A stretch of 15,520 nt of DNA from a virus (lineage: Duplodnaviria > Heunggongvirae > Uroviricota > Caudoviricetes): the IMG/VR virus record IMGVR_UViG_2541047936_000006, positions 1 to 15,520 of that record. The stretch is one strand, 5' to 3'. Made by a program: the position numbers and the translations under genes. Below the pieces are notes generated by a model. The model searched no databases and had not been told where the DNA came from. It was given only the letters and a program-made list of their open reading frames with translations. Position 1 is the first letter of the stretch. Each line of letters opens with the position of its first letter. Of this stretch, positions 1 to 15,520 are shown one piece after another.

Positions 1-219
1 TTACATCCACATAATTTGCTGCCCTGACGGCAACGGGTGCGGCCTTACGGCGTGGACTTCTCCCGGCTTCACGATGTATCTCTGTACCGACTCATAAGTG
101 ATGAACGTGGCGCTGCAATTCACGTTCTGGCACTGGTGATAACGCTCTTTTGTCGTGTCAGTGATATAGCGACTTGTACGCGCATGTGCGGCATGCTGGC
201 ATAAAGGACAATGAAACAT
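1..219 (-). CDS. ogr: Ogr-type zinc-finger activator of P2 late genes, 72 aa
   Basis: Translation from the ATG at 219 reads MFHCPLCQHAAHARTSRYITDTTKERYHQCQNVNC..., with the four-Cys spacing C-x2-C-x22-C-x4-C typical of Ogr/Delta. GAGG lies about 10 nt upstream. The track ORF (1..282) extends upstream in frame, but the internal ATG gives the canonical 72-aa length. Stop is at 1-3. Confidence 0.9.
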   Translation of the reverse strand: MFHCPLCQHAAHARTSRYITDTTKERYHQCQNVNCSATFITYESVQRYIVKPGEVHAVRPHPLPSGQQIMWM

Positions 220-300
220 CGCGAGCACCTCTTCCGGTTTTGTTGATGGTGCCATTTTAGTTAATTTACCCTTATAAAACAAACAGATAAAATAAAAATA

Positions 301-603
301 TTACTCATCATCTTCTGTTTCGTACTCCACATCAGAAAGCCTGACCTCAAGCTCTAAGGACGTCGTGAAGCCGCTATTATTCAGAAAATGTGTCACCTTA
401 GTGATTGTCCAGTCCTGCTCGTCTATGACGCGCTTAAAGCCTGATACTTTGGCTAAGGGATGACACAATTTATTCTTTGCCGCTGATGAGGGGAATTTTT
501 TATAGAGCGTGGACAGGCCAATATCAAAAATCAGCGCCACGCGTTGACGTGATTCACCCGCAGCCAGCAATCCCCGGCAGAACGAACGCCGTATCGAGTT
601 CAC
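301..603 (-). pseudogene. Chimeric remnant: Gin/Pin/Hin-type DNA-invertase C-terminal HTH fused in frame to the C-terminal end of a gpD-like tail/baseplate protein
   Basis: Residues RQRVALIFDIGLSTLYKKFPS closely match the C-terminal HTH of serine invertases (Gin ...QVALIYDVALSTLYKKHPA). The C-terminal ...WTITKVTHFLNNSGFTTSLELEVRLSDVEYETEDDE resembles the end of P2 late control protein D and sits directly upstream of ogr as D does in P2. Only a GTG start, no RBS; far shorter than the 387-aa gpD. Confidence 0.5.
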
Positions 604-823
604 CGCCCACGGCCAGAATCAGCACCTGTTCCCCCACGGAAGGTGCCCACCACGTGCGCGAACGTCCGGCACGATGGGTCAGCCACTGAAGCCAGTCGGT
701 GCACATGCCGCCGGTCTGCACACGGCAGCGACCGGCGTTAAGGTCGGTTTCGACGATAATGCCGGTGCGGATCATGTTGCGCAGTGCGCGCGCGAGTTCC
801 TGAATATTTGCGAGTGTGTTCAT
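554..823 (-). pseudogene. N-terminal fragment (about 85 aa) of baseplate spike protein gpV
   Basis: ATG at 823; MNTLANIQELARALRNMIRTGIIVETDLNAGRCRVQTGG... matches the N-terminus of P2 gpV as I recall it. The frame ends after ...VLPGI with AGCG-stop, and the following ORF (301..603) overlaps it in another frame, which fits a deletion junction near 570. Confidence 0.6.
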
Positions 824-889
824 AACGGGAAGGATGCCGCCGGGTCATACCGGCGGCAATGTGACGATGAGGTGTCGGGAATGGCACAA

Positions 890-1318
890 CTAACGGTCGA
901 GGTGAGCCAGGATAATCTCTTCAATCATCTGCACATCCTCACCGGTAAAGCCGAGCAGAGGACGCGCCGGATAATCAATTTTCTTACCGTCTTTCCGGTT
1001 TTCTTCCGACAGACCGAACTGATGCACACTGGCGATTTTCGGCGACTTCCCGCCGTAAAATTCCATTGATGCCTGCTCCGGGCTGGCGCGGATATGCAAA
1101 AAACGACTGGTAATAAGTTTCGCAAACATTTTTCGCTTAACACGACCAGTCTTTTTTCTGGCGCTCTGCTGCTGGCGTGGCGCGTAGGGTGTGCCGTCCG
1201 GGGCTTTCTGAGCCATCACCCGACGCTGCTGACTCTGCCGCAGACGTTTCGCCAGTTCGGCGCTCAGTCGCCGACGCCCTGACGGTGACAGCGATTCAAT
1301 CAGTCCGGTCACCCTCAC
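890..1318 (-). CDS. Phage virion morphogenesis / tail completion protein, gpS family (possibly start-compromised)
   Basis: The C-terminal half carries the family signature ...ASVHQFGL...YPARPLLGFTGEDVQMIEEIILAHL. Only GTG starts (1318 or 1312), no clear SD. It lies 39 nt after, and in frame with, the stop of M, where P2 would have L. Confidence 0.6.
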   Translation of the reverse strand: MRVTGLIESLSPSGRRRLSAELAKRLRQSQQRRVMAQKAPDGTPYAPRQQQSARKKTGRVKRKMFAKLITSRFLHIRASPEQASMEFYGGKSPKIASVHQFGLSEENRKDGKKIDYPARPLLGFTGEDVQMIEEIILAHLDR

Positions 1319-1357
1319 TGACCGGCGTGCCGCCCTGGCGCGGGGCGCATTCGGTTG

Positions 1358-2101
1358 TTAACTGGCTTTCTTTTTCGGGCGTCCACGTTTTGCCGGTGTC
1401 ACGCTCCGGGTCTTACGCGGGGTACGGGTGGCCGCTTTGGGCTGCGGCTCCGGCTTCGGTTTCAGCTCCCGCTCCAGTCGTTCAATCTCTTTTTTGACGC
1501 CTGCCTGACAGTCGAGCTGTGTCGCACGTTGCAGGTGAGCCAGCGCACCGGCGGCATCACCACCATCACGCAGAAACAGACCGGTGATTTTGTGCAGCTT
1601 TGCGCGCACTTCATCAGGCATGTCAGCCGTGGCGGTCAGTTCAAGGGTCTCCGTCAGCAGGCGGGTATCCACAGACTCACCGGCAGCGTGGGCGCGCATG
1701 GCCGCGAGCGCCACCTCCTCGGTGAACATGTACGGCGGGGTGCGGCGGTGTTTACCCGGCATGGTCAGACCGTACTTCAGGGCATAACGGGCAATCTCCA
1801 GCGCACCGGCAATATCGCCGGTATCCAGACGCCACAGCATGACCGTCATCAGAATGTCATCCTGTGCACCTTTGCCCTGCTCCAGCACGCCGTTCACCCA
1901 CGGCAACCAGAACGGCAGCAGTTCGCGTTTTTTCGCGGCCTTCAGCTCTTTTGAATAAATCGCTTTCAGTGTGCGCTGGTCTGCGGCCAGCTTGACCAGC
2001 ATCTGCTCATAGACAGTTGCATGTCGCAGCGGGGCGGCTTCCCGCTGCGCGGTCATCGCTGCCGAGACCCGCATCATGTGGCGCTGTGCGGGACTCGTCA
2101 T
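1358..2101 (-). CDS. M: Terminase small (endonuclease) subunit gpM, 247 aa
   Basis: ATG at 2101, 3 nt after the N stop. Full-length match in size and sequence to P2 gpM (MTSPAQRHMMRVSAAMTAQREAAPLRHATVYEQ...), with the basic Lys/Arg/Pro-rich C-terminal tail. Confidence 0.9.
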   Translation of the reverse strand: MTSPAQRHMMRVSAAMTAQREAAPLRHATVYEQMLVKLAADQRTLKAIYSKELKAAKKRELLPFWLPWVNGVLEQGKGAQDDILMTVMLWRLDTGDIAGALEIARYALKYGLTMPGKHRRTPPYMFTEEVALAAMRAHAAGESVDTRLLTETLELTATADMPDEVRAKLHKITGLFLRDGGDAAGALAHLQRATQLDCQAGVKKEIERLERELKPKPEPQPKAATRTPRKTRSVTPAKRGRPKKKAS

Positions 2102-2104
2102 CGG

Positions 2105-3178
2105 TTACGCTCCCGGCTCTGCGGTCGCTTTAGCCGGTGTGGAGAAATCACCGACCTTAATTTTTTCCACCAGACAACCGGCGGCGTAGTCCTCCACCAC
2201 GTAATCAATGTTCATTGACTCGTAGTTCTCCACGCGGTCGAGTTTCGGGTTTTCCTCAATCACGCGGCGATGGCTGTCATCCATGTAGTAGATGGACAGG
2301 TTTTCCAGCTTCGTGATGAGCATCGCATCCGCCGGGAAGTACGGGACGCGTACCGCTGGCAGGTTGCCGATGCGTTTCTGGCTGATGATGACGTCAGCGG
2401 CCAGCATTTCGCTGTTGTCCTGCTCCTTGTTGACGATGGGAAAATACTTGTCCGCCAGTAGCTGACGTCCCACAATCACCACAAGGTCAGGGTCTTCCTG
2501 ATACCACGGCTCAATCAGGTTGTTGGTCGCATCCATCACCAGTGCATCAAGGCTGGCATAATCACCGCCCTTACCCACGCGGATGACCTCAGAGGTGGTG
2601 TGCCCTTCCTCGTCAGTGACCTTGCTCATCACGCGCGCCGGGGCTTCATTGCGGTATTTCTGCAGCCAGCCGACCGCCACATCCTGCAGCATCGGATTGC
2701 TGCTGCGGTCAGAGGTTTCGGCACGCCTCACGCCGTTAAAACCGGCCATGATTAAATCAAGGGACTGGCGTTTGATAATGGCGTTACGGACACGGAGCTG
2801 GAAATCCTGATAACGCGCCCACAGGTCCAGCGTTTTGTAGCGGATATAAAAATCGAAGTTAATCTGGTCGCATTCGTACTTGTTTGACGCCAGCTTCGAG
2901 AAGTCCTTCGGCTGACGCTCGGTGCCACCGGCGGTGTCGGTGGTGCTGGCGATGGAGCCGGTGACACCAATACCAATTTTTTCCCCTTTCATTTCGCTGA
3001 CCGGCACAATGTTGATGCGGGTCAGAAAGTCAGAGGACTCCTGCATGGTGTTCATCAGGGTCTGGGTGACCGACGGTTCAACGGTGAATTTTTTCGACAC
3101 ATCACCGGCGTCGATGCCGTTCAGTTCGGCAACACGGGACAGGTAGGCATTAAATTTAAAGCGGGTTTCCTGGCGCAT
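2105..3178 (-). CDS. N: Major capsid protein gpN, 357 aa
   Basis: ATG at 3178; MRQETRFKFNAYLSRVAELNG...; the length and sequence correspond to P2 gpN. Follows O and precedes M as in P2. Confidence 0.95.
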   Translation of the reverse strand: MRQETRFKFNAYLSRVAELNGIDAGDVSKKFTVEPSVTQTLMNTMQESSDFLTRINIVPVSEMKGEKIGIGVTGSIASTTDTAGGTERQPKDFSKLASNKYECDQINFDFYIRYKTLDLWARYQDFQLRVRNAIIKRQSLDLIMAGFNGVRRAETSDRSSNPMLQDVAVGWLQKYRNEAPARVMSKVTDEEGHTTSEVIRVGKGGDYASLDALVMDATNNLIEPWYQEDPDLVVIVGRQLLADKYFPIVNKEQDNSEMLAADVIISQKRIGNLPAVRVPYFPADAMLITKLENLSIYYMDDSHRRVIEENPKLDRVENYESMNIDYVVEDYAAGCLVEKIKVGDFSTPAKATAEPGA

Positions 3179-3236
3179 AGTTTTTCCTGAAATTAAGGGT
3201 TAATCGTGAAGGTTTTCCCGGACTGACTGACGCCGG

Positions 3237-4091
3237 TCAGCAGTTCGTCATCAGGGCGTCACCGCCACCGCCGGTGGCTTTGCTGCGGCGCTGCTGGGTC
3301 AGACTTTCGGTGTGGTCGAGACTGTTTTTCAGGCGGGTGAATGCCTGACTGGTTTCATCCGCCCTGTCAGTCACATCCTGCTTAAGTGCCGAAAAGGCGG
3401 TTTCCATCTCAGCAAGGCGCTGCTCAGTGGCGCTCAGTTTTTCCTGCACATGCTCAGCGACAGCGGTCACCGCTTCATGCACGTCATTCAGACGGGCGTC
3501 ATCGCTGGCCTGTTTGCGGCCAAAAATGGATTTCACCTTTTCGGTCAGGGCGGTGAACACGGTTTCAGGCAGGTCTTCAAATTCCAGCTCAACAGGCGTT
3601 GCCACTGAAATCAGGTTTTCAGGGCTTAATTTGAAGCGGTTCAGAGGGTTGTGTTTTGCCGTGCGGCAGAATTCCAGGTATTCCGTGCCGAGGCTTGCCG
3701 GGTCATCGGTGACGGCCAGACCCACCAGATAACATTTGCCTGTATTGGCAAAGTTCGGCTGAATTTCCATTGAGGTATAGACCTTCTGCGCGGCCTTGTT
3801 CATCGCGATAAGGTCATCGGTCGGGGTGATTTTCGCAAACAGCGCCCATTTGCCTTTCAGCGCCGAATCATCGTCAATCTTTTCGGCCTTCAGTTCGGCC
3901 ACATCGCCATAACGTTTAAAAATACCGTCAGGCAGGATGCCGCGCAGATGTTCCAGGTTAATGCGGCAACCATAGACACGCGGGTCAAAGGTTTCGGCCA
4001 TTTCCTGAATATCCTGCGCACTGATGACACGCCCGTCACAGGTGTCACCCTCAACGCCGATACGAAAGAATTTTGAGACTTTTTTTGCCAT
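3237..4091 (-). CDS. O: Capsid scaffolding protein gpO, 284 aa
   Basis: The track ORF starts at 4157, but the internal ATG at 4091 (MAKKVSKFFRIGVEGDTCDGRV...) gives exactly 284 aa, the P2 gpO length. AGGA lies about 12 nt upstream. Confidence 0.85.
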   Translation of the reverse strand: MAKKVSKFFRIGVEGDTCDGRVISAQDIQEMAETFDPRVYGCRINLEHLRGILPDGIFKRYGDVAELKAEKIDDDSALKGKWALFAKITPTDDLIAMNKAAQKVYTSMEIQPNFANTGKCYLVGLAVTDDPASLGTEYLEFCRTAKHNPLNRFKLSPENLISVATPVELEFEDLPETVFTALTEKVKSIFGRKQASDDARLNDVHEAVTAVAEHVQEKLSATEQRLAEMETAFSALKQDVTDRADETSQAFTRLKNSLDHTESLTQQRRSKATGGGGDALMTNC

Positions 4092-4264
4092 TGTCAGGAG
4101 TCCTGAATAGTGATTAGAGGAGTCACATGTCGGCATCAGTTTCCCGACGATGCGCATCCTCCGCCATCAGTCCCGGATGGCTTATCACTGACACAACAGC
4201 ACCTTAGCGAATCGCGGGGCGCGACTCAGTAGCCTTGCCGTGTATTCATCACGGCGAGGTATTC
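4092..4264. promoter_or_regulatory. Divergent late-promoter region between O (leftward) and P (rightward), expected to be Ogr-dependent
   Basis: This is the 173-bp intergenic region between the two divergent head operons, which is where P2 has its P_O and P_P promoters. I could not locate an exact TGT-N12-ACA element by eye, so the call is positional. Confidence 0.45.
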
Positions 4265-6037
4265 ATGACCATCACCACAGACACCACTCTTTTACACGAC
4301 CCGCGTCGTCAGGCGGCGCTGCTGTACTGGCAGGGATTTTCCGTGCCGCAGATTGCCGCCATGTTGCAGATGAAACGCCCGACGGTGCAGAGCTGGAAAC
4401 AGCGCGACGGCTGGGACAGCGTTGCCCCCATCAGCCGTGTCGAAATGAGTCTGGAAGCGCGGCTGACCCAGCTCATCATCAAACCGCAGAAAACCGGCGG
4501 TGACTTCAAGGAAATTGACCTGCTCGGACGCCAGATTGAACGACTGGCGCGGGTCAACCGCTACAGTCAGACCGGCAACGAGGCAGACCTTAATCCGAAC
4601 GTCGCTAACCGCAACAAAGGCGGGCGTCGCAAACCGAAAAAGAATTTTTTCAGTGACGAGGCCATCGAAAAGCTGGAGCAGATTTTCTTTGAGCAGTCTT
4701 TCGAATATCAGTTGCACTGGTATCGCGCCGGACTTGAGCACCGCATCCGCGATATCCTGAAATCCCGCCAGATTGGCGCGACGTTTTATTTTTCCCGCGA
4801 GGCGCTGCTGCGCGCCCTGAAAACCGGCCATAACCAGATTTTTCTGTCGGCCAGTAAAACGCAGGCGTATGTGTTCCGCGAATACATCATTGCCTTTGCC
4901 CGGCTGGTTGACGTTGACCTGACCGGTGACCCGATTGTCCTGGGCAATAACGGTGCAAAACTGATTTTTCTCGGCACCAACTCCAACACCGCACAGAGCC
5001 ATAACGGCGACCTGTACGTCGATGAGATTTTCTGGATCCCGAATTTTCAGGTACTGCGTAAGGTGGCATCAGGTATGGCCTCACAGAGTCACCTGCGCTC
5101 GACCTATTTCTCCACCCCGTCCACGCTGGCGCACGACGCCTACCCGTTCTGGTCCGGTGAACTGTTTAACCGGGGACGCGCCAGCGCCGCTGAACGCGTG
5201 GAAATCGACGTCAATCATAACGCACTTGCCGGAGGTCTTCTCTGTGCGGACGGCCAGTGGCGGCAGATTGTCACCATTGAGGACGCGCTGAAAGGCGGCT
5301 GCACGCTGTTCGACATTGAGCAGCTCAAACGCGAAAACAGCGCCGACGATTTTAAAAACCTGTTCATGTGTGAATTTGTTGACGACAAGGCGTCAGTGTT
5401 CCCGTTCGAGGAGCTGCAACGCTGCATGGTCGACACGCTGGAAGAATGGGAAGACTACACGCCGTTTGCCACCAATCCGTTCGGCTCCCGCCCGGTATGG
5501 ATTGGTTACGACCCGTCACACCGTGGCGACAGCGCCGGATGCGTGGTGCTGGCACCGCCGGTGGTGGCCGGTGGCAAATTCAGAATACTTGAGCGCCATC
5601 AGTGGAAAGGCATGGACTTTGCCACCCAGGCGGAATCCATCCGCAAACTCACCGAAAAATACAACGTCGAATACATCGGTATTGATGCCACCGGCCTCGG
5701 TGTCGGCGTGTTCCAGCTCGTGCGCTCGTTCTATCCCGCCGCGCGCGATATCCGCTACACGCCGGAAATGAAAACCGCAATGGTGCTCAAGGCAAAAGAC
5801 GTTATTCGCCGTGGCTGTCTGGAATATGACGTCAGCGCCACCGACATCACCAGCTCGTTTATGGCTATCCGCAAGACCATGACCAGCAGCGGACGCAGCG
5901 CCACCTATGAGGCCAGCCGCAGCGAGGAAGCCAGCCACGCCGACCTCGCCTGGGCGACCATGCACGCTCTGTTAAATGAGCCACTCACCGCCGGTATCAG
6001 CACCCCGCTGACATCCACCATTCTGGAGTTTTACTGA
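4265..6037 (+). CDS. P: Terminase large (ATPase) subunit gpP, 590 aa
   Basis: ATG at 4265, preceded by GAGG at 4257-4260. MTITTDTTLLHDPRRQAALLYWQGFSVPQIAAMLQ... ends ...TILEFY. The length matches P2 gpP, and the stop TGA overlaps the Q start (TGATG). Confidence 0.9.
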   Translation: MTITTDTTLLHDPRRQAALLYWQGFSVPQIAAMLQMKRPTVQSWKQRDGWDSVAPISRVEMSLEARLTQLIIKPQKTGGDFKEIDLLGRQIERLARVNRYSQTGNEADLNPNVANRNKGGRRKPKKNFFSDEAIEKLEQIFFEQSFEYQLHWYRAGLEHRIRDILKSRQIGATFYFSREALLRALKTGHNQIFLSASKTQAYVFREYIIAFARLVDVDLTGDPIVLGNNGAKLIFLGTNSNTAQSHNGDLYVDEIFWIPNFQVLRKVASGMASQSHLRSTYFSTPSTLAHDAYPFWSGELFNRGRASAAERVEIDVNHNALAGGLLCADGQWRQIVTIEDALKGGCTLFDIEQLKRENSADDFKNLFMCEFVDDKASVFPFEELQRCMVDTLEEWEDYTPFATNPFGSRPVWIGYDPSHRGDSAGCVVLAPPVVAGGKFRILERHQWKGMDFATQAESIRKLTEKYNVEYIGIDATGLGVGVFQLVRSFYPAARDIRYTPEMKTAMVLKAKDVIRRGCLEYDVSATDITSSFMAIRKTMTSSGRSATYEASRSEEASHADLAWATMHALLNEPLTAGISTPLTSTILEFY

Positions 6038-7071
6038 TGAGCAAGAAAAAAGGGAAAACACCGCAACCTGCGGCAAAAACAATGACCGCCAGCGCCCCGA
6101 AAATGGAGGCATTCACCTTTGGTGATCCGGTGCCGGTACTCGACCGCCGTGACATTCTGGATTATGTCGAGTGCATCAGTAACGGCAGATGGTATGAGCC
6201 ACCAGTCAGCTTTACCGGTCTGGCAAAAAGCCTGCGTGCTGCCGTGCATCACAGCTCACCGATTTACGTCAAACGCAATATTCTGGCCTCGACATTTATC
6301 CCGCATCCGTGGCTTTCCCAGCAGGATTTCAGCCGCTTTGTGCTGGATTTTCTGGTGTTCGGTAATGCGTTTCTGGAAAAGCGATACAGCACCACCGGTA
6401 AGGTCATCAGACTGGAAACCTCACCGGCAAAATATACCCGCCGTGGTGTGGAAGAGGATGTTTACTGGTGGGTGCCGTCCTTCAACGAGCCGACAGCCTT
6501 CGCACCCGGCTCCGTGTTTCACCTGCTGGAGCCGGATATTAATCAGGAGCTGTACGGCCTGCCGGAATATCTCAGCGCCCTTAACTCTGCCTGGCTGAAT
6601 GAGTCGGCCACGCTGTTCCGCCGCAAGTATTACGAAAACGGCGCTCATGCCGGATACATCATGTACGTCACCGATGCCGTGCAGGATCGCAACGATATCG
6701 AAATGCTTCGCGAAAACATGGTTAAGTCGAAAGGCCGCAATAACTTTAAAAATCTGTTTCTCTATGCCCCACAGGGGAAAGCCGACGGCATTAAAATTAT
6801 CCCGCTCAGTGAAGTGGCAACGAAGGACGATTTTTTTAATATCAAAAAAGCCAGCGCCGCTGACCTGCTGGACGCGCATCGCATCCCCTTTCAGTTGATG
6901 GGGGGCAAGCCGGAGAACGTCGGGTCGCTGGGTGATATTGAGAAAGTGGCAAAGGTCTTTGTCCGCAATGAGCTTATCCCGTTACAGGACAGGATCCGCG
7001 AGATAAACGGCTGGCTCGGTCAGGAGGTCATCCGATTTAAAAACTACTCACTGGACACTGACAACGGCTGA
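6037..7071 (+). CDS. Q: Portal (capsid vertex) protein gpQ, 344 aa
   Basis: MSKKKGKTPQPAAKTMTAS...; same length as P2 gpQ and translationally coupled to P. Followed by a terminator and cos, as at the left end of the P2 genome. Confidence 0.9.
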   Translation: MSKKKGKTPQPAAKTMTASAPKMEAFTFGDPVPVLDRRDILDYVECISNGRWYEPPVSFTGLAKSLRAAVHHSSPIYVKRNILASTFIPHPWLSQQDFSRFVLDFLVFGNAFLEKRYSTTGKVIRLETSPAKYTRRGVEEDVYWWVPSFNEPTAFAPGSVFHLLEPDINQELYGLPEYLSALNSAWLNESATLFRRKYYENGAHAGYIMYVTDAVQDRNDIEMLRENMVKSKGRNNFKNLFLYAPQGKADGIKIIPLSEVATKDDFFNIKKASAADLLDAHRIPFQLMGGKPENVGSLGDIEKVAKVFVRNELIPLQDRIREINGWLGQEVIRFKNYSLDTDNG

Positions 7072-7076
7072 ACATC

Positions 7077-7098
7077 GCCGCCTGCGGGCGGCTTTTTT
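7077..7098 (+). terminator. Rho-independent terminator of the P-Q operon
   Basis: GCCGCC (7077-7082), loop TGCG, GGCGGC (7087-7092), then TTTTTT (7093-7098), starting 6 nt after the Q stop. Confidence 0.7.
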
Positions 7099-7240
7099 AC
7101 ACCCCGTCATCACCCCCTCACACGCTCACCACCGCACAAAACACCCCGCAGACACACCAACGCCTCAACGGGCAGACTAAGCGCCGTCACGACGCGCTCA
7201 GACGCTGAAAAAATAAAATCCGCACCACCGCCAGCGCGCA

Positions 7241-7259
7241 GTGCTTTCCCCGCCTCGCC
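7241..7259 (-). other. P2/P4/186-type cos cohesive-end sequence (19 nt)
   Basis: The plus strand reads GTGCTTTCCCCGCCTCGCC, the reverse complement of GGCGAGGCGGGGAAAGCAC, which I recall as the P2/P4 cohesive end. It lies about 170 bp beyond the Q stop, matching P2 left-end topology. Confidence 0.75.
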
Positions 7260-7518
7260 CGCCCGCTTCATGGGGAGGTTTTAATGCAAACGCATCAGGA
7301 AGGGCAGACCTAGTCACATGTAGAATACGATAGCAATAAAAAAGTCTAATTAGAATGCAAATTGATGCAACTCTATGCCCTCCAAGAACTCCAAACCTGA
7401 AAGATTTATGTAAAACATAGTGTTCGTTTCACCAAAATACATATAAACTACATTAAAATAGAAATTTGTCTCACCTATAAGCCATTTAGACAACAGATTA
7501 ATGAGGTTTGTATCACAA

Positions 7519-8664
7519 ATGACCACAAACGAGATACTTTCGCAGCTTATCAGTCTTGGACTCAAAGGGGATAAAGTTGCTTTTGTTCGGCAGGCTTCGA
7601 AACTCGCGCGTTCCTATGATTCTATGGGGCTGCCTGAGCTTGCTTCAGCCATTAGAGGTAGTATTCAAGATAAAAACACGTTTAACTTGCAGAAAGTATC
7701 ACGCAGTACATCACCTATTTTTGAACGTCTTGATACATTACCTGTAGATAAAGAAACTAAATTTGATTTAGCAGACGTAACTCAACCGTCTTCTGAAATT
7801 CAACTCCCATTGTTGAAAGATAGCACTCTGAAAAAAATTAAAGAATTTTTGACTTTCACTGAACGAGCTAAAGAATTAAAGGATGCCGGTCTTGGCGTGA
7901 CATCCTCTATGATTTTATATGGGCCACCAGGTTGTGGTAAAACCTTGACATCAAAATATATTGCATCCTGTCTAAATTTACCGCTTCTTACTGCAAGATG
8001 TGACTCCTTAGTCTCATCATATCTGGGGTCTACTTCTAAAAATATCAGGCAGCTATTTGAGTATGCAAGTAAAGCACCATGTGTTTTATTTCTAGATGAA
8101 CTAGATTCTCTAGCAAAGGCTAGAGATGATCAGCATGAGTTAGGTGAACTGAAGAGGGTGGTGGTTTCTTTATTGCAAAATATTGACAATCTACCTGAAG
8201 AAACAATATTGATTGCTGCAAGTAATCATGAAAATCTTCTAGATAGCGCAGTTTGGAGGCGCTTTGAGTATAGAATATCTATTGGATTGCCTGATTTTGA
8301 AGTCAGAAAACAACTATTTGAACAATATTCAAACATAAAAGCTACATATGACGATTTTGTTGATGACCTTGCGGAAATATCATCAGGGCTAAACTGCTCA
8401 TTTATAGAACAATGCTGCTTAAGATCTGAGCGACATGCTCTGGTTTACAATAATAAACAAATCGATACCCGATTTTTAGTCGAGGCTATCTTAGAAGCGA
8501 AGGGAGTTACATTTGATGAAGAAGATAATTTACTTATAAAGATTGTGACCACTCTCAGAGAATACAATCCCAAAAGATTTACAATACGAAAGATAGCAAA
8601 AATACTAGGGCTTTCAAATGCTAAAGTGTCAAGGCTAACTAAGAACTATAGAGAGATATTATGA
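7519..8664 (+). CDS. Classical AAA-family ATPase, 381 aa (candidate IetA-like defence ATPase)
   Basis: Walker A is GPPGCGKT (Lys141, nt 7921-7944) and Walker B is VLFLDELD (nt 8083-8106). The second region of homology, ...AASNHENLLDSAVWRRFEYRISIGLPD, resembles the Vps4/katanin-type RRFE/D motif. Start chosen at the ATG at 7519 (GAGG 12 nt upstream); the track start is 7501. The stop overlaps the next start (ATGA). Confidence 0.85.
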   Translation: MTTNEILSQLISLGLKGDKVAFVRQASKLARSYDSMGLPELASAIRGSIQDKNTFNLQKVSRSTSPIFERLDTLPVDKETKFDLADVTQPSSEIQLPLLKDSTLKKIKEFLTFTERAKELKDAGLGVTSSMILYGPPGCGKTLTSKYIASCLNLPLLTARCDSLVSSYLGSTSKNIRQLFEYASKAPCVLFLDELDSLAKARDDQHELGELKRVVVSLLQNIDNLPEETILIAASNHENLLDSAVWRRFEYRISIGLPDFEVRKQLFEQYSNIKATYDDFVDDLAEISSGLNCSFIEQCCLRSERHALVYNNKQIDTRFLVEAILEAKGVTFDEEDNLLIKIVTTLREYNPKRFTIRKIAKILGLSNAKVSRLTKNYREIL

Positions 8665-10925
8665 GTAACAAAGAAAGACCAATAAAAATAATTGAGGCGA
8701 CACCTCAAGATTTTACTGAAAAAACATATAATTTCGGAAAGAAACAACCTATCCGAACAGTAACAACTAGTCTAAAAAATAGACTCAAACAAGAAGTCGA
8801 TGACGTTAAAAATTTTTTCCAGAGCTCATTTAAAAAATGGCCCAATATACCGGCGGTGGCTAGAGTTACTCTTCATGAAAAAGCTCTTGCTAAGTCACAT
8901 CGCCCATCAAGCCTATTAGGTGATAATACATGTCCCGTAATAGGCAGTGATAATTTTGGAGAATTACTTATAAGTGTTACTGAAAAAGGGTTAGCACAAC
9001 TTCGCAAAAAAATTGAAAATAGCACTAATTCTCATAATGGGACAGTACATATTGCTGTAATTGAAAAGATCGAACCTTTTAGTCTTAACCATGATGTTAT
9101 AGATAAAAATAAATCAGATAGTTTTCTTCTGAAACTCTTTGACCATAAAGATAGAACAACTAACCGCAGTATCGACAAAGAATTAATGGAATTTGCAGAT
9201 GAACTAGGAATACAAAAACCCAAAAAGTATGATATCAGTTCAGATTTGAGTATATATGAAGTAAAAGGGAATGATAACATCGCCCAACTGGCAAGTTTTA
9301 TTGGCATACGAAAATTAGAACCTATGCCAACATTTGGTCTTACTCATACAGTATCGCAATATATTCCTGCTGAAACTCTAGACCTAGATGATTTTCCCTT
9401 ACCTCAAGAGGATAAACATTATCCACTACTCGGAATTATAGATAGCGGAGTCGATCCCAATAACAACATACTTAGGCCATGGATTTGGGATAGTTTAGAT
9501 TTAGTAAAAGGAGAACACGACTATTCTCATGGGAACATGGTTGCAAGTTTAGCAATTAATGGAAGATGGTTGAATAACTATGCTGGTTTTCCTCAATGCC
9601 AAGCTGAAATTGTTGATGTTGCAGCCTTTCCCAAAGATGGTACGCTCAAATTGCCACAATTAATGAAAGCTATCCGAGAGGCTGTGACCACCTATCCAGA
9701 AGTACGTGTATGGAATCTGTCATTAGGTTGTCAATCCCCATGTTCTGAAGACAGCTTCTCTGAATTGGGGCATTTTTTAAATGCACTTCATGATGAGCAT
9801 GATTGTCTTTTCGTCGTAGCATCCGGCAACTACATTTATGATCCTCAACGAACCTGGCCTCCTCAAGAATTAGGTGGGCATGACAGAATATCAGCCCCCG
9901 CAGATTCTGTTCGTTCATTAACTGTTGGCTCAGTTGCCCATTTAGAATCGTCTGACTCTGTGGTCAAAAGATTTGAACCTTCATCTTTTTCTAGAAGAGG
10001 TCCCGGCCCAGCCTTTATACCCAAACCAGAGATAAATCACTTTGGAGGTAATTGTGACAGTAAATTAAACTGTGAACATACCGGAATCATAGCTATTGGC
10101 GAGGACAATGCTCTTTGCGAAAGTATTGGCACAAGTTTATCAGCACCGTTAATCTCAAGTTTAGCGGCATCACTGTGGCATGAACTAGATGTTAATGGTT
10201 CTATTTCACCATCGCCTGAACGTATCAAGGCACTATTAATTCATTCTGCGTTAAAAAACTCACCAGCCAAAACGGAGCATTATGCGTTTAATTATCAAGG
10301 ATTTGGACGCCCAAGCGATCATATAAATGATATTATTGGTTGCAATAAAAATGAGATTACATTTCTATTTGAAATAGATACCCGAGAAGGTATTGAATTC
10401 AGTAGAACGCCATTTGTAATACCACAGTCATTACGTACTGAGGATGGAAAATTCACAGGTGAAATTATTATGACACTCGTTTATTCTCCACCGCTTGATT
10501 ATGACTACCCATCTGAATATTGCCGTTCTAATGTGGATGTGTCATTCGGGACTTACACTTATGATCCAGTTAACGCTAAATGGATACATAGCGGAAAAAT
10601 TCCACAAATAAAAGAAAAGAGTGAATTATTTGAAAAGGTACTGATAGAAAATGGCTTCAAATGGTCTCCAGTCAAAGTTTATAGAAAACAATTTCCGCAA
10701 GGTATAAATGGGGAGCAATGGAGACTTAAACTTGATGTTCAGAGACGAGCAGAGCAAGAGCCTCTATCTTCACCTCAACGTGCTGTATTGGCTATTACGT
10801 TAAGATCTCTTGCCAATTCTACTACAGTCTACAACGAAGCCGAGGTTGAAATAAATAATCTTGGTTGGAAAGAAACTGATATTGTTGTTCGTGAACAACC
10901 AAAAATCAGGATTCGTCAAAAATAA
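8661..10925 (+). CDS. Subtilisin-like serine peptidase (S8 family), 754 aa, with large extra N- and C-terminal regions (candidate IetS-like)
   Basis: The catalytic triad appears in the canonical order D-H-S: Asp261 in GIIDSGVD (nt 9441-9443), His290 in HGNMVAS (9528-9530), Ser492 in GTSLSAP (10134-10136), with an ASGN oxyanion-hole motif. About 250 aa N-terminal and about 220 aa C-terminal have no recognisable motifs. AT-rich codon usage. Confidence 0.9.
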   Translation: MSNKERPIKIIEATPQDFTEKTYNFGKKQPIRTVTTSLKNRLKQEVDDVKNFFQSSFKKWPNIPAVARVTLHEKALAKSHRPSSLLGDNTCPVIGSDNFGELLISVTEKGLAQLRKKIENSTNSHNGTVHIAVIEKIEPFSLNHDVIDKNKSDSFLLKLFDHKDRTTNRSIDKELMEFADELGIQKPKKYDISSDLSIYEVKGNDNIAQLASFIGIRKLEPMPTFGLTHTVSQYIPAETLDLDDFPLPQEDKHYPLLGIIDSGVDPNNNILRPWIWDSLDLVKGEHDYSHGNMVASLAINGRWLNNYAGFPQCQAEIVDVAAFPKDGTLKLPQLMKAIREAVTTYPEVRVWNLSLGCQSPCSEDSFSELGHFLNALHDEHDCLFVVASGNYIYDPQRTWPPQELGGHDRISAPADSVRSLTVGSVAHLESSDSVVKRFEPSSFSRRGPGPAFIPKPEINHFGGNCDSKLNCEHTGIIAIGEDNALCESIGTSLSAPLISSLAASLWHELDVNGSISPSPERIKALLIHSALKNSPAKTEHYAFNYQGFGRPSDHINDIIGCNKNEITFLFEIDTREGIEFSRTPFVIPQSLRTEDGKFTGEIIMTLVYSPPLDYDYPSEYCRSNVDVSFGTYTYDPVNAKWIHSGKIPQIKEKSELFEKVLIENGFKWSPVKVYRKQFPQGINGEQWRLKLDVQRRAEQEPLSSPQRAVLAITLRSLANSTTVYNEAEVEINNLGWKETDIVVREQPKIRIRQK

Positions 10926-10930
10926 GCATT

Positions 10931-10955
10931 ATGGTCACCTTTTATAGGTGACCAT
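10931..10955. terminator. Hairpin between the convergent cargo operons (possible bidirectional terminator)
   Basis: ATGGTCACC (10931-10939), loop TTTTATA, GGTGACCAT (10947-10955); a perfect 9-bp stem between the stop at 10925 and the stop at 10959. There is no strong U-tract on either side. Confidence 0.45.
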
Positions 10956-10958
10956 TTA

Positions 10959-11720
10959 CTACACCTTATTATTTTCAACTATTTTATGAATATCCATATC
11001 AAACCAAGAAACTTGCGAAATTTCTTTTAGTGGAAAGATGATACTAGTATCAGCATCCTCAAGCTCTCTATATTCATTCACCAAGATTACTTTCAATGAA
11101 TCCTTATCTCTATACCCAGAGATAATAGGATAGATTGAAACATACTGGTTAGGTCCTTCTTTCTCGTTAGGCTCACCTAATGCGTTAACAATTCCTACAT
11201 ATGTCTTTTTATTTTGCAACGTAATAAGTATTGAACGTCTATCAACTAACGAATCAAAAAATATTTCATCCATTGGATTATCATTAATAAGCTCTTGCCT
11301 CATCCTTAGCATGACAAGATTCTCATAATCAATATTGGCAGCCTTTACCCCTTGGATATAATTTATAATTTTAGCTCTATATATAACCAAATATCTAGCA
11401 CCGACACTCCATATCCAAGCCAAAAATATCGTTCCACATGAAAGTAAAATCATCCATCCTATGATTCTTTCAGTACCATTGTCACTAAGTTTGAGATCTA
11501 ATTGTTCCCGAACCATCGTGACAGGATGGAAGCTCGGACATATCCATTTTATTAAGTAAGCTATAATCAATGTCCATATAAAACACCACAGACCAAAGGC
11601 GGCTGACTTCATATATAACAACTGCCCATCATAACGGTGTAATCTATAGAAATGATAAGGATGAGTGGTTAATACAATATAACCACTCACAAGTAATGGA
11701 ATAATTAATAAAGCAAACAT
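10959..11720 (-). CDS. Uncharacterised membrane protein, 253 aa: three predicted N-terminal TM helices plus a soluble C-terminal domain of about 145 aa
   Basis: ATG at 11720. Hydrophobic stretches are FALLIIPLLVSGYIVLTT, AAFGLWCFIWTLIIAYLIKWI and IIGWMILLSCGTIFLAWIWSV. Its start lies 2 nt after the stop of the upstream small ORF (TAATAATG). No family recognised. Confidence 0.7.
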   Translation of the reverse strand: MFALLIIPLLVSGYIVLTTHPYHFYRLHRYDGQLLYMKSAAFGLWCFIWTLIIAYLIKWICPSFHPVTMVREQLDLKLSDNGTERIIGWMILLSCGTIFLAWIWSVGARYLVIYRAKIINYIQGVKAANIDYENLVMLRMRQELINDNPMDEIFFDSLVDRRSILITLQNKKTYVGIVNALGEPNEKEGPNQYVSIYPIISGYRDKDSLKVILVNEYRELEDADTSIIFPLKEISQVSWFDMDIHKIVENNKV

Positions 11721-11722
11721 TA

Positions 11723-11959
11723 TTAATTCCCTTTAGCCATTTTTTCTTCTTGCTTTACCTGCTCAGAAACTATTTTTCTTGCTTTAATTTTCATCAATTT
11801 TACTGTATCTGAGCTTGCCAAGTCTTCTTTAGATGTGATAATCGCGCCTCGACCTACCACCTCAACAGTGTTTGTTCCAGATGCTTCAAGCCTCCTCGCC
11901 AGTTCTCTTTCCTTTTCAATAGCAGCTTTACCTATAATACGTTCAAATATATTCATCAT
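11723..11959 (-). CDS. Small charged hypothetical protein, 78 aa, first gene of a two-gene operon
   Basis: ATGATG start at 11959/11956 with a strong SD (GGAGG about 6 nt upstream on the minus strand). The stop is tightly coupled to the membrane-protein start. Sequence MMNIFERIIGKAAIEKERELARRLEASGTNTVEVVGRG...; no family recognised. Confidence 0.6.
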   Translation of the reverse strand: MMNIFERIIGKAAIEKERELARRLEASGTNTVEVVGRGAIITSKEDLASSDTVKLMKIKARKIVSEQVKQEEKMAKGN

Positions 11960-12050
11960 TTAACCTCCACTTGATTGATGCCAAGATAGTAATCACCTCC
12001 TCACAATATCTTACCAACCTAACAATTAACAGAACACTGTGTATAAGTCC

Positions 12051-12078
12051 AGTATAGTTTAATTAATAAATTAGGCAA
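12051..12078 (-). promoter_or_regulatory. Candidate sigma70 promoter for the minus-strand two-gene operon
   Basis: On the minus strand: TTGCCT (-35), a 16-nt spacer, TATACT (-10), about 90 nt upstream of the ATG at 11959 in an AT-rich intergenic region. Found by eye only. Confidence 0.3.
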
Positions 12079-12473
12079 ATCTATCAAAATGGTATTTTGT
12101 TAAAAATTCAGCTAACTCTGAGGTTGGTAAAACAGTCCACCAGATGTATCGCTAAAGCACTTAGAAACCACTATAACCATCCTAAGTGTACCAGTCAGTC
12201 TGTTTGTCTAATCGCATCACTATGCTCGTTATTCTATCCCCCGCCAATCCTGAGCTGGCTGCGTTCTCTATCGTCTGCGTGGTGGCGGTGCAGCGCTGGG
12301 CTGACCGATATAGTTAAGCCATACGTAATTATCCCGGACTATTTCGGCACACCCGACCAGCTCATCGGGCGTCAGATTTTCGTTGACCATAATCTGCTGT
12401 AGACGGTGAACAATGGCCATCAGCTTGATATTTTTAGTTTTATGCTGCGGTATCTCGCCTGGTATTCTGTGCA

Positions 12474-12929
12474 TTATCCAAGCCACCCGTTTTGCTGTGC
12501 ACGCTCCACCTGTTCATCTGAATAGTTCCATATCCCATCCGCACCAACCACTGCCCCGCCAGACATCCCCGTCTCTGGTTCATACACAACAGCAAGGCCG
12601 AGCTGATGCATAATTTCATGATTAATTCTGAATACCAGACCACGCTCACTAAGTTCTTTCCAGTTCACAAACTCATATGCGCCTGTATTAAGCAGCTCAA
12701 TACTTAGCAAGACATAATCTTCCAGCCAGTCTGACAAGTCAGTAACATCTGTTATCCGGGCTTCAACCTTTCGCCCCGTATACACACCCTGCACCCATTC
12801 ATGCAAAATCAACGTGTCCCCGCGCTCATAATTACGGTCATTTTTCCGAAACTCTGCGCGTTTCTTTCCTTCCAGCACAAGGTCAAAATATTTTGCGTGC
12901 AGCTTTACCTCGTGAATTTTTGCCATCAT
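12474..12929 (-). CDS. DUF3850-like (ASCH/PUA-like fold) domain protein, about 151 aa
   Basis: MAKIHEVKLHAKYFDLVLEGKKRAEFRKNDRNYERGDTLILHEW...YTGRKVEARITDV matches the DUF3850 consensus as I recall it. ATG at 12929 with GGAG about 9 nt upstream; it overlaps the stop of the A fragment (ATGATG/TGA). The track ORF starts at a GTG at 12962. Confidence 0.65.
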   Translation of the reverse strand: MMAKIHEVKLHAKYFDLVLEGKKRAEFRKNDRNYERGDTLILHEWVQGVYTGRKVEARITDVTDLSDWLEDYVLLSIELLNTGAYEFVNWKELSERGLVFRINHEIMHQLGLAVVYEPETGMSGGAVVGADGIWNYSDEQVERAQQNGWLG

Positions 12930-14038
12930 TTCCACTCCATTACTGTTGAGAATCCCGGCCACTCATCAGCGACCGGATACGTGAATTTTTTCCCGTCATA
13001 ATTTACGGTCGCGCCACGCGCCAGCGCCTCAAGCTCCCATCGCTGCGGCCTGATACCGTTCTGAGCAAGGTCAACGCGGATACGGGTAATTTGCATTCTT
13101 TCCGACCGGGTCAGTCTGGCCGATGGTGCAATTTCATGTGGTTTTAACGGGCTTCCGTTTCTTTGCTGACGGTTTGGCGTTCTCAGGTCGTGTTTTAATG
13201 CACCCCTGAGCGCCCTCACGACCTCCGGGTCATTCCATTCGATAACACCATCATCAACCAGATTAAGCACTGCTGCGGCGTGTTCAGAAGGCGTGGGAGC
13301 CGGTGACGAAGTATCACCACTGGTGAGCTTTCCACAGTTATTGACAGGACTCCGAGGCGCGGCGATGCCGCTTTTTAAAGTCAAAGGCTCAACGACCGGC
13401 ACTTTCGGAACAATGCGCCAGTCCGTGGTTCTGGTGATATGAATATGACGCGCGCCGAGATGCGGCGCGTAAATGCCGACCACTCTCTCGACTTCTTCCT
13501 CGTACTCGTTAACTTCATCCGACGGACTACGGGCGACCCTGACAGTCTGACAATCGCGCGAGACATTTGCCCCACCCTGCGCGCTGATATACAGCGCAAA
13601 ATCACCACTGTCTGCGGCGGCGCGTGCAGCCTCGACGCGCTCGTCAAACTCATCAGCAATGCTGACGCCGCGAGGCAATTTGCGTAGTTCACGGTAAGCC
13701 CCCATTGTCGGCAGACCAACCGTTTTAAATTGCGGGATGCGCCACGTTGACGCCCATGCGGTAACAGCCGCCGCAGTATCTTTCAGCGGTCTGCCGGTAT
13801 CGTTATCGAGCTGACCATCCAGTGCATAGCCGTCGATATTTTTTGAAATGTATTTCGCGATATATCCCGCAGCACCGCCCCGGTTACCGATGTAAAGAGC
13901 AAAACCTTCTTTCGACAGCAAATCAGATGGGCGCTCTGAAATCTGAATGCTTTTACGTTTGGCTTCATTTTCGAAACTTGCCTCATCGCTAGTTGGACAA
14001 GAAATTTCTACATTTGTCGTCACTTTGCTATCCTCCAT
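12926..14038 (-). CDS. Replication initiation endonuclease gpA family, C-terminal portion only (about 370 aa against 761 aa in P2)
   Basis: Contains the rolling-circle initiator active-site Tyr motif GYIAKYISKNIDG about 60 residues from the start, where P2 gpA has its catalytic Tyr near residue 450. No cox or B gene lies upstream. Possible starts are the ATG at 14038 or the GTG at 14023 (GGAGGA 8 nt upstream). Confidence 0.65.
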   Translation of the reverse strand: MEDSKVTTNVEISCPTSDEASFENEAKRKSIQISERPSDLLSKEGFALYIGNRGGAAGYIAKYISKNIDGYALDGQLDNDTGRPLKDTAAAVTAWASTWRIPQFKTVGLPTMGAYRELRKLPRGVSIADEFDERVEAARAAADSGDFALYISAQGGANVSRDCQTVRVARSPSDEVNEYEEEVERVVGIYAPHLGARHIHITRTTDWRIVPKVPVVEPLTLKSGIAAPRSPVNNCGKLTSGDTSSPAPTPSEHAAAVLNLVDDGVIEWNDPEVVRALRGALKHDLRTPNRQQRNGSPLKPHEIAPSARLTRSERMQITRIRVDLAQNGIRPQRWELEALARGATVNYDGKKFTYPVADEWPGFSTVMEWK

Positions 14039-14060
14039 AAGATTTGCGATTCACCAACTG

Positions 14061-14085
14061 GAGCCATCTAGAGCCTTTTTGAGCG
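14061..14085. promoter_or_regulatory. Three 10-bp-phased direct repeats (GAGCC/GAGCC/GAGCG) in the switch region; candidate C-repressor operator
   Basis: GAGCCatcta GAGCCttttt GAGCGaatca at 14061, 14071 and 14081, between the divergent A fragment and C. P2-family repressors are known to bind direct rather than inverted repeats. A TATAAT hexamer lies at 14109-14114. Confidence 0.4.
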
Positions 14086-14131
14086 AATCACAAATTGCCA
14101 AGTAACAATATAATTGGAGATTAGCAAAATT

Positions 14132-14431
14132 ATGTCAAGTGAACAAAGTGAGAAACTAAAGCTCATCCGTGAATCCGAACGCCTTAAAACTAAGGAACTT
14201 GCTGAATTAATTGGAATTAATTACTACACATATCATGGATATGAATCAGGAAAATCAAAAATGCCTATGGAAGCAGGTATGAAGCTGTTTAAGCATCCAC
14301 GCTTTCGCAAGTATCGTGACTGGTTCATGTTTGATGAAACAGATCCAGCAGCTGGACAAATAGCCCCGGCTCTCGCACACATTGGGCAAGACTCAACAAC
14401 CTTGCACCACTCAGACCAGAAGACTGGCTGA
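14132..14431 (+). CDS. C: Immunity repressor C (P2 C family), 99 aa
   Basis: ATG at 14132 with GGAG 12 nt upstream; the track starts at a TTG at 14114. The C-terminus ...AGQIAPALAHIGQDSTTLHHSDQKTG parallels P2 C (...SGQIAPALAHFGQNETTSPHSGQKTG), with an HTH-like segment near the N-terminus. Confidence 0.8.
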   Translation: MSSEQSEKLKLIRESERLKTKELAELIGINYYTYHGYESGKSKMPMEAGMKLFKHPRFRKYRDWFMFDETDPAAGQIAPALAHIGQDSTTLHHSDQKTG

Positions 14432-14524
14432 CGATTTATTCAGCATATGTGTGTAGTAAATGTACGAAAGAAAATTGCATTAATTTTCAAGTAGTAGAAG
14501 TAAACAGCGTCATCGGAGGGCTTT

Positions 14525-15520
14525 ATGTCTATTAAAAAGCTCGATGATGGTCGTTATGAAGTGGACGTCAGACCGCAGGGTGCAGATGGAAAACGTATCA
14601 GGCGGAAATTTAAAACTAAAGGTGAAGCTCAAGCATTCGAACGTCATGTACTGGTTAACTACCACAACAAAGAGTGGTTGGAGAAACCAGCCGACCGCCG
14701 AACTCTTACAGAGTTGTTAGGCAGATGGTGGATATATCACGGAAAATCACATGAGCGTGGAGATATTGAACGGGGGCGTTTAACGACAATAATCGCCAAA
14801 TTTGCAGAAATGGGAGTGTCCAGAGCTGACCAGCTAACAAAGAAAACGATAACTGATTATCGCGTTGTAATGATGAACGATGGTCTGAAACCAGCCAGCG
14901 TAAATCGACATCTGGCAATAATGAGCGGGATGTTCACCAAGTTAATTGACGCCGGTGAATACCACTCTCACAACCCGTTCCGTGAGATTAAACGGTTACG
15001 TGAAGCTGTTACGGAAATGGCTTTTTTGTCCAGTGAAGAGATTACGCGGCTGTTATCCATGCTTGATGGTGATGAATTAAATGCAACTCTGGTCTGCCTT
15101 TCTACTGGTGGACGCTGGAGTGAAGTATCTAATTTAAAAGCTGAACACATCATTAACCAGATGGTTACGTTTATGAAAACTAAAAACGGAAAACGCAGGA
15201 CAATTCCCGTTTCGCAGGACCTGATTAAACGGATCAAGACCAAAAATTCAGGCAGGCTTTTTAATGCCAGTTACTACAAAGTGCGTAACGCTCTCAGGGA
15301 AGTAAAACCCGATTTACCTGACGGACAAGCAGTACATGTTTTGAGGCATACATTTGCCACACATTTTATAATGAATGGAGGTAACATAATCACATTGCAG
15401 CGCATCCTGGGTCATTCTAACATTCAGCAAACTATGACCTACGCACACTTTGCACCGGATTTCTTACAAGATGCTGTGACTCTTAACCCGGTGTCAGGAA
15501 TGTCCATAATGCGTCCATAA
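14525..15520 (+). CDS. int: Tyrosine integrase (P2 Int family), 331 aa
   Basis: GGAGGG SD precedes the ATG at 14525. The catalytic box HVLRHTFATH and the Tyr in ...QQTMTYAHF (nt 15440-15442) are present. It is downstream of C as in P2, and its stop coincides with the window end. Confidence 0.9.
   Translation: MSIKKLDDGRYEVDVRPQGADGKRIRRKFKTKGEAQAFERHVLVNYHNKEWLEKPADRRTLTELLGRWWIYHGKSHERGDIERGRLTTIIAKFAEMGVSRADQLTKKTITDYRVVMMNDGLKPASVNRHLAIMSGMFTKLIDAGEYHSHNPFREIKRLREAVTEMAFLSSEEITRLLSMLDGDELNATLVCLSTGGRWSEVSNLKAEHIINQMVTFMKTKNGKRRTIPVSQDLIKRIKTKNSGRLFNASYYKVRNALREVKPDLPDGQAVHVLRHTFATHFIMNGGNIITLQRILGHSNIQQTMTYAHFAPDFLQDAVTLNPVSGMSIMRP

Follow-up and report, generated by a model that had tools for sequence, protein, structure and literature searches.

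What is the block at positions 301–823 of this prophage, how did pieces of three different genes come to be joined there, and does the product of that joining serve any purpose? The window (the whole stretch of DNA analysed here, 15,520 bp) is a prophage of E. coli UMEA 3317-1 that occupies a site between pflB and pflA and extends from ogr to int. The block is filled, on the minus strand, by three dead gene stumps, which derive from the tail-spike gene V, a DNA invertase gene and the tail protein gene D (Table 1). We consider it highly probable (about 0.85) that the block is an inert scar of a decaying P2-like prophage, made by illegitimate joining at 2-bp A/T overlaps.

Table 1. Coordinates of the stumps, reading frames, joints and neighbouring features in the window.
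Feature	Position	Strand	Evidence or remark
ogr (late-gene activator), intact, 72 codons	1–219	-	Pfam Ogr_Delta, E = 2e-21
D' stump, final 49 codons and stop of late gene D	301–450	-	aligns to 21714–21863 of the LWY24 prophage (L003)
100-aa chimeric ORF: 11 aa of out-of-frame V, invertase 154–193, D 339–387	301–603	-	
Joint invertase'/D', 2-bp overlap AA (phage orientation)	449–450		6,227 bp missing
Invertase stump, codons 154–193 of 197	449–570	-	100% DNA identity to the LWY24 and DCE7 recombinase genes
89-aa ORF: V 1–85 and 4 out-of-frame codons	554–823	-	hypothetical protein G964_02979, E. coli UMEA 3317-1
Joint V'/invertase', 2-bp overlap TT	569–570		5,482 bp missing
V' stump, V codons 1–85, OB-fold domain alone	569–823	-	Pfam Phage_base_V, E = 2.7e-20
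S–V intergenic region, retained	824–889	-	within the 569–1314 alignment to S–V of intact prophages
S' (tail completion gene), first ~10 codons missing	890–1314	-	Pfam Phage_tail_S, profile 13–147 of 148
Joint M/S', imperfect 6-bp overlap	1309–1314		2,999 bp missing
IetA (AAA ATPase) / IetS (S8 protease) anti-phage defence pair	7501–10925	+	PADLOC, E = 9e-132 and 1e-273
Cox'-A' in-frame chimeric ORF, 370 aa	12926–14038	-	cox codon ~51 joined to C-terminal A
Joint A'/cox', 3-bp overlap TTA	13884–13886		3,298 bp missing

Two overlapping reading frames cover the block. The 89-aa ORF was 94% identical to residues 1–85 of the intact 211-aa gpV and matched Phage_base_V (PF04717) in Pfam at E = 2.7e-20; its last 4 codons are invertase DNA read in another frame. 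The gpV spike domain (PF18715) was absent from the V' stump, residues 86–211 being deleted. A V C-terminal piece in another P2 remnant does show that domain. The 100-aa ORF has a GTG start codon within out-of-frame V sequence. Its residues 12–51 were 100% identical to residues 154–193 of the intact 197-aa recombinase, and its residues 52–100 were identical to residues 339–387 of the 387-aa gpD. Pfam returned a match to HTH_7 over residues 12–39 of this ORF (E = 1e-6, above the gathering score), no resolvase catalytic domain (PF00239) in it, and no Phage_GPD (PF05954, tail hub) match in the D' stump.

The first-pass annotation had described the block as a mosaic of a gpV N-terminus, an invertase helix-turn-helix (HTH) and a gpD C-terminus, and it was right in every part, with the bounds 301–823 exact. 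The HTH is fused in frame to a gpD-like C-terminus, as had been claimed, the 100-aa ORF running from invertase 154–193 directly into D 339–387. The truncated V does abut the invertase stump, V' ending at 569 and the invertase starting at 570 with an overlap of 2 bp. The similarity check that had been proposed for the two ORFs gave HTH_7 at E = 1e-6, 49 identical residues of gpD and 94% identity to gpV. Judged by alignment, the three-part DNA match of the block is far beyond chance. The in-frame fusion of invertase to D is most likely a coincidence, because 1 in 3 such fusions is expected to be in frame by chance.

The middle stump descends from the serine invertases of the Gin/Hin/Cin/Pin group: it corresponds to nucleotides 460–581 of the 594-nt recombinase gene of the LWY24 prophage and is 100% identical to full-length genes over its 122 nt. 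The full-length 197-aa recombinase matched PDB structure 3uj3, the Gin invertase from Mu, at E = 9e-95, and the gene from which the stump derives has close homologues in Gin (Mu), Hin (Salmonella), Cin (P1) and Pin (e14). Compared with these proteins, the stump represents the C-terminal HTH DNA-binding part and none of the catalytic resolvase domain. Even the DNA-binding domain is incomplete, the HTH_7 match spanning only profile positions 17–44 of 45; the C-terminus of the recombinase aligns with the Hin DNA-binding domain (1hcr) from residue 139, and the stump begins only at 154. The end of helix 1 and the helix-turn-helix itself (helices 2–3) are kept, and the catalytic domain, the minor-groove arm, most of helix 1 and the last 4 codons are gone. 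Such a piece is predicted to be unable to work as a recombinase.

In LWY24 the invertible segment is bounded by 26–27-bp inverted sites, TTCTCGCATACC-TT-GGTTTGGGAGAA and TTCTCCCAAACC-AA-CGTTTATGAAAA, which we take to be crossover sites of the cix/pix type. A search with the crossover-site consensus (≤3 mismatches) found none anywhere in the window. An ancestral DNA invertase, perhaps with an invertible tail-fibre segment, had been proposed from the block alone, and both are found in intact relatives. A full invertase gene is present in the DCE7 prophage, which occupies the same chromosomal site and is 99.6% identical over 1309–15520; an invertible tail-fibre segment adjoins that gene in DCE7 and is flanked by the cix/pix-like inverted sites in LWY24.

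The block was placed in context by comparison with intact prophages. The LWY24 prophage (L003) served as the first intact reference in BLASTN alignments, and DCE7, a closer relative, was compared afterwards. Against LWY24, window positions 1–450 aligned to ogr and the last 150 nt of D (98.4%), 569–1314 to the first 255 nt of V and to S (96.9%; S' itself to L003 9151–9575), and 1309–7294 to M through Q (98.3%). All pieces are collinear with the intact prophages, with three deletions relative to LWY24 and four relative to DCE7. The DCE7 prophage has the same site (pflB, ogr ... int, pflA), the same orientation and the same IetAS cargo as the window. Identity to it was 99.6% over 1309–13886, 99.5% over 13884–15520, 96.2% for V'–S (573–1314), 98.4% for ogr–D' and 100% for the invertase island. 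Judging from these values, DCE7 is not the exact parent of the V'–S segment, and either the remnant or DCE7 is probably mosaic in the S–V region. A 786-nt opposite-strand gene for a 'hypothetical protein' lies between S and V in L016–L018 (e.g., L016 8940–9725); the window, LWY24 and DCE7 lack it.

In DCE7 the late genes S, V, W, J, I and H are followed by a gene for fibre assembly and by a second set of fibre genes in inverted orientation; then come the recombinase gene, FI, FII, E, T, U, D and ogr. Relative to that prophage the window lacks 18,006 of 33,527 bp, in four deletions. The 5,482-bp deletion took the rest of V, W, J, I, H, the invertible segment and invertase codons 1–153, and the 6,227-bp deletion took the end of the invertase gene, FI, FII, E, T, U and most of D; the two flank the 122-bp invertase island. 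The 2,999-bp deletion took L, X, holin, lysozyme, lysA, lysB/C and R, and the 3,298-bp deletion took most of A, small early genes, B and the end of cox. The earlier expectation of two or more deletions was thereby confirmed by the two beside the invertase stump (5,482 and 6,227 bp), with two more elsewhere in the prophage, and the comparison with intact invertase-bearing P2-like prophages placed the three pieces of the block at three separate places.

One of these joints was also found outside the lineage. E. coli IAL7250 (L018, NZ_CM130729.1, ~9607–9650) carries the S/M joint with one SNP inside it, in a prophage of 97.5% identity that lies elsewhere, at yegQ/trhP, keeps V whole and is without the other three joints. 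On this comparison the S/M joint may be either old and moved between loci, or recurrent. Stepwise decay certainly occurs, because IAL7250 has the S/M joint without the other three.

A late region of P2 type, encoded on the minus strand, takes up the left 7.3 kb of the window in the order ogr, the block, S', M, N, O, P and Q. The gene order of P2 (Q P O N M ... S V ... D ogr; int C cox ... A) is kept, the window being collinear with intact P2-like prophages, and Pfam matches were obtained for portal, terminase, GPO, capsid, M, S, V, Ogr and Int. The ogr gene is also called as a 72-aa gene in an identical contig (L004). The late genes L, X, holin, lysozyme, lysA/B/C, R, W, J, I, H and G are absent, as are FI, FII, E, T, U, most of D, B and most of A; with this gene content the remnant would not be expected to produce virions. 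The IetAS pair is intact and sits between the portal gene and the early region, in a layout identical to that of the DCE7 prophage. Two further genes were noted nearby. A 253-aa ORF beside IetS (10959–11720, minus strand) had no Pfam or PADLOC match, and a 162-aa DUF3850/ASCH protein (12474–12962, minus strand) is encoded next to truncated A; both have conserved counterparts in DCE7.

The sequences at the two joints of the block are simple. In phage orientation the V/invertase joint reads ...CTGCCGGGGA-TT-GCTGGCTGCG..., with TT common to both parents, and the invertase/D joint reads ...CCCTTAGCC-AA-AGTATCAGGC..., with AA common to both parents. The most economical reading of both is homology-independent joining at minimal A/T overlaps. 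We infer that the window derives by deletion from an intact ancestor, which would have been a complete ~33.5-kb phage whose tail-fibre genes were switched by a Gin/Pin-type serine invertase sited between the fibre genes and the sheath gene. Homology-independent joining would have taken out V codon 86 through invertase codon 153 (5.5 kb) and invertase codon 194 through D codon 338 (6.2 kb), either as two deletions in succession or as one complex event, and would have left the 122-bp invertase island between the V stump and the D stump. No single-deletion intermediate was found, so that either order, and one event as well as two, would fit. Further deletions would have removed 3.0 kb from L to R (head completion and lysis genes) and 3.3 kb from A to cox (replication genes). 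One observation runs counter to random decay: the D endpoint lies within 1–2 nt of at least 3 independent deletions in other strains, which argues that the choice of endpoint was non-random.

Other routes to the same arrangement were weighed against deletion by illegitimate joining. The phage's own serine invertase, or a host invertase of the Pin/Gin type acting in trans, could have recombined quasi-crossover sites. The first-pass annotation had called the deletions 'possibly recombinase-mediated', and the joint overlaps, each exactly 2 bp, are indeed TT and AA, the central dinucleotides of the phage's real sites; Cin of P1 is reported to use quasi-sites with the central dinucleotide in common. 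Endpoints were scored with a position matrix built from the phage's four real half-sites and applied to every 26-mer of the 22.6-kb reference, on which the real crossover sites reach 22 and 20 of 24. At the V endpoint 12 of 24 half-site positions matched (top 0.5% of all prophage positions), but the two invertase-gene endpoints and the D endpoint scored 6–7 of 24, which is the median. A serine invertase would require two recognisable sites for each deletion, and here each deletion would need two poor quasi-sites as partners. Moreover, each deletion has one endpoint within the invertase gene, and the 5.5-kb deletion destroys the invertase catalytic domain. No crossover-like sites are left in the window, invertases of the Gin/Pin type normally need a Fis-bound enhancer and favour inversion, and joints of 2–3 bp of A/T occur in other P2 remnants far from any invertase gene (judged by position alone). 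The suggestion was not supported: three of the four endpoints are ordinary and unlike the phage's true sites of crossover, and the overlap at the joints is no more than 2 bp. Invertase-mediated deletion was rejected as the main mechanism, only the V endpoint standing out of the four scored, and we regard it as very improbable. A single replication-based event, in which template switching between V, the invertase gene and D made both joints and left the 122-bp island as templated filler, is rather unlikely. It would account for the absence of a single-deletion intermediate from every collection searched and for the same kind of 2-bp A/T overlap at both block joints, and small islands occur elsewhere, as in L006, where P' and D' enclose 321 bp of V, and in P0022, where a 192-bp piece of a tail gene separates cox' from D'. 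The lineage, however, is sampled in only two assemblies, which makes the missing intermediates weak evidence, and the prophage carries at least 4 deletions, one of them common to a strain without the other three.

The remaining explanations concern the status of the block. A domesticated small HTH protein with a regulatory role, kept under selection, could be encoded by the 100-aa ORF, given that the in-frame fusion retains HTH helices 2–3 and that transcription is conceivable with Ogr and the upstream late-promoter region intact. We find this barely plausible. The HTH_7 domain is reduced to positions 17–44 of 45, without the minor-groove arm and most of helix 1; the GTG start lies inside out-of-frame V; the ORF is absent from ~15 billion predicted proteins; the joints are restricted to one strain lineage; and the same D tail carries different random partners in dozens of other remnants. 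That the mosaic is an assembly artefact in a chimeric contig is more improbable still and can be practically dismissed: short-read assemblies can mis-join repeats, but the joints share only 2 bp and offer no such repeat, and the same arrangement recurs in two assemblies built independently, a 4.07-Mb NCBI scaffold and one from Logan, with listings for 2 and 4 samples. Deletion by illegitimate joining, leaving an inert scar, is retained as the preferred reading.

The distribution of the joints was determined with the joint k-mers AAAGCCTGATACTTTGGCTAAGGGATGA and GCAGCCAGCAATCCCCGGCAGAAC and with the ORFs that span them. Neither k-mer was found in 185,579 species-representative genomes or in the JGI metagenomes, and neither joint was spanned in any of 5,426 complete E. 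coli genomes. The V'/invertase joint (89-aa ORF) occurred only in GCA_000461215.1 (UMEA 3317-1) and one Logan assembly, both of which carry both joints. The 100-aa ORF had no gene call in any public assembly or among ~15 billion predicted proteins, and no invertase–D fusion was present among its homologues. Truncated V proteins in the 90% cluster of the 89-aa ORF were considered as other joints and rejected as contig-end partials. The partners fused to the D tail in dozens of remnants include Cox, T, V, O, I, U, holin, sheath, R and lysB/C.

Signals for expression were also sought. Sigma-70 promoter and terminator scans gave nothing above shuffled-sequence expectation, and a terminator-like hairpin in the invertase stump (552–537) was rejected on the same ground. 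In P2 the S–V intergenic region contains the Ogr-dependent late promoter P_V. With ogr and this region intact, V' and the chimeric reading frame may be transcribed; from their content the stumps are nevertheless best read as inert scars without function.

Joints in other remnants were surveyed as well: those of independent P2 remnants (L001, L006–L008, L011–L017 and the window) were mapped on the LWY24 prophage (L003). Expectations were taken from random position pairs in the same sequence, in which TA makes up 3.1% of dinucleotides. Among the 11 tested joints with an exact 2–3-bp overlap, 8 contained TA (1.9% expected; binomial p ~2e-12) and 9 were A/T-only (15% expected; binomial p ~2e-6), counts that are to be read with parents that are proxies at 96–99% identity, a D-side sample seeded by a D-tail search, and site reuse, which leaves fewer independent observations. 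A minority of joints use longer microhomology (TCACCA, AACGG or an imperfect 16-mer). Later TA joints, outside the 11 tested, were TTAC in L016 and TA in L017. The window's own A/cox joint is TTA; its two block joints are TT and AA, not TA.

Endpoints were reused with different partners. The D endpoint at reference 21713–21714 joins the invertase gene in the window, V in L006, lysC in L007 and P in L008. V-10004 has D-21394 as its partner in one strain and D-21543 in a second, D-21393/4 is fused to V-10004 or J-10730, and V-9908 is the left end in one remnant and the right end in another. About 44 of ~50 chimeric X–D proteins break at four D sites (aa 318/319, 326–329, 339 and 341–344), each of which is TA in at least one D allele. 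By eye, the surroundings of the used TA sites showed no extended motif or hairpin in common, and a search of the literature on P2 remnants, eduction and TA-biased deletion joints found nothing usable. Action of the P2 integrase on secondary att sites was considered and rejected, the TA endpoints scoring 6–12 of 27 against the 27-bp att core (background 8.3 ± 2.2), with no enrichment; the left joint of K-12 yegZ is the only one within that core.

It is an unlikely proposition, offered tentatively, that P2-like prophages erode mainly by joining at TA or A/T-only dinucleotides, with 2–3-bp overlap and at a few reused sites. Joints of this kind could come from an undescribed TA-directed nuclease, transposase or recombinase, or from a strong, unrecognised sequence bias in the end-joining of E. 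coli. Slippage during replication could be biased as host end-joining could, or a specific activity could be directed at TA.

Several known systems resemble the window. Barreiro and Haggard-Ljungquist reportedly described, in 1992, the cryptic P2 remnant yegZ-ogrK of E. coli K-12. That remnant likewise has a D C-terminal stump followed by intact ogr, beside the right attachment site, and its D stump starts 63 nt upstream of the one in the window. It consists of only D' and ogr, lies at the yegQ locus and has its left joint inside the att core, whereas the window keeps 15.5 kb (int, C, capsid genes, defence cargo, and the V and invertase stumps) at the pflB/pflA site. The left joint of yegZ (D') in K-12 MG1655 (L009 1470–1500) reads AAAAAAATAAGCCCGTGTA/GCAGAGTTC (also written AAAAAAATAAGCCCGTGTA/GCAGAGTTCTCC) inside the P2 att core. 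Its D side is at L003 21651, where ~19 other chimeric proteins also break. This joint could be integrase-mediated, or another TA joint.

Invertase-bearing P2-like (Peduovirus) relatives, of which GenBank has many, include pro483, S164, 'P2' of O157:H43 T22 and Salmonella MET_P1_103_31. Together with DCE7 and LWY24, these intact prophages and phages share the gene order of the window, with 96–100% DNA identity for each retained piece, and they carry the invertase gene between the fibre-assembly genes and the sheath gene. They are complete, whereas the window is without 18 kb, and with it have gone all tail genes, lysis genes, crossover sites and the invertase's catalytic part. Like the window, defective ('grounded') prophages as a class (e.g., the review PMC6379469) show internal deletions and pseudogene stumps with regulators and cargo kept. 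Nothing essential differs between these and the window, which is a textbook case; the block is a lineage-specific deletion scar of ordinary prophage decay.

For the strain, the comparison implies that the tail fibre of its prophage would once have been switchable; what is left is a non-inducible remnant, which still carries int, the C repressor, ogr, capsid genes and the IetAS defence system. The block itself is of little import and is useful chiefly as a clean reconstruction of stepwise decay, with four joints and an intact counterpart at the same site. The pattern of TA joints is the only lead that might repay a dedicated survey; if true, it would point towards a specific mechanism, and not random slippage, in the dismantling of prophages.
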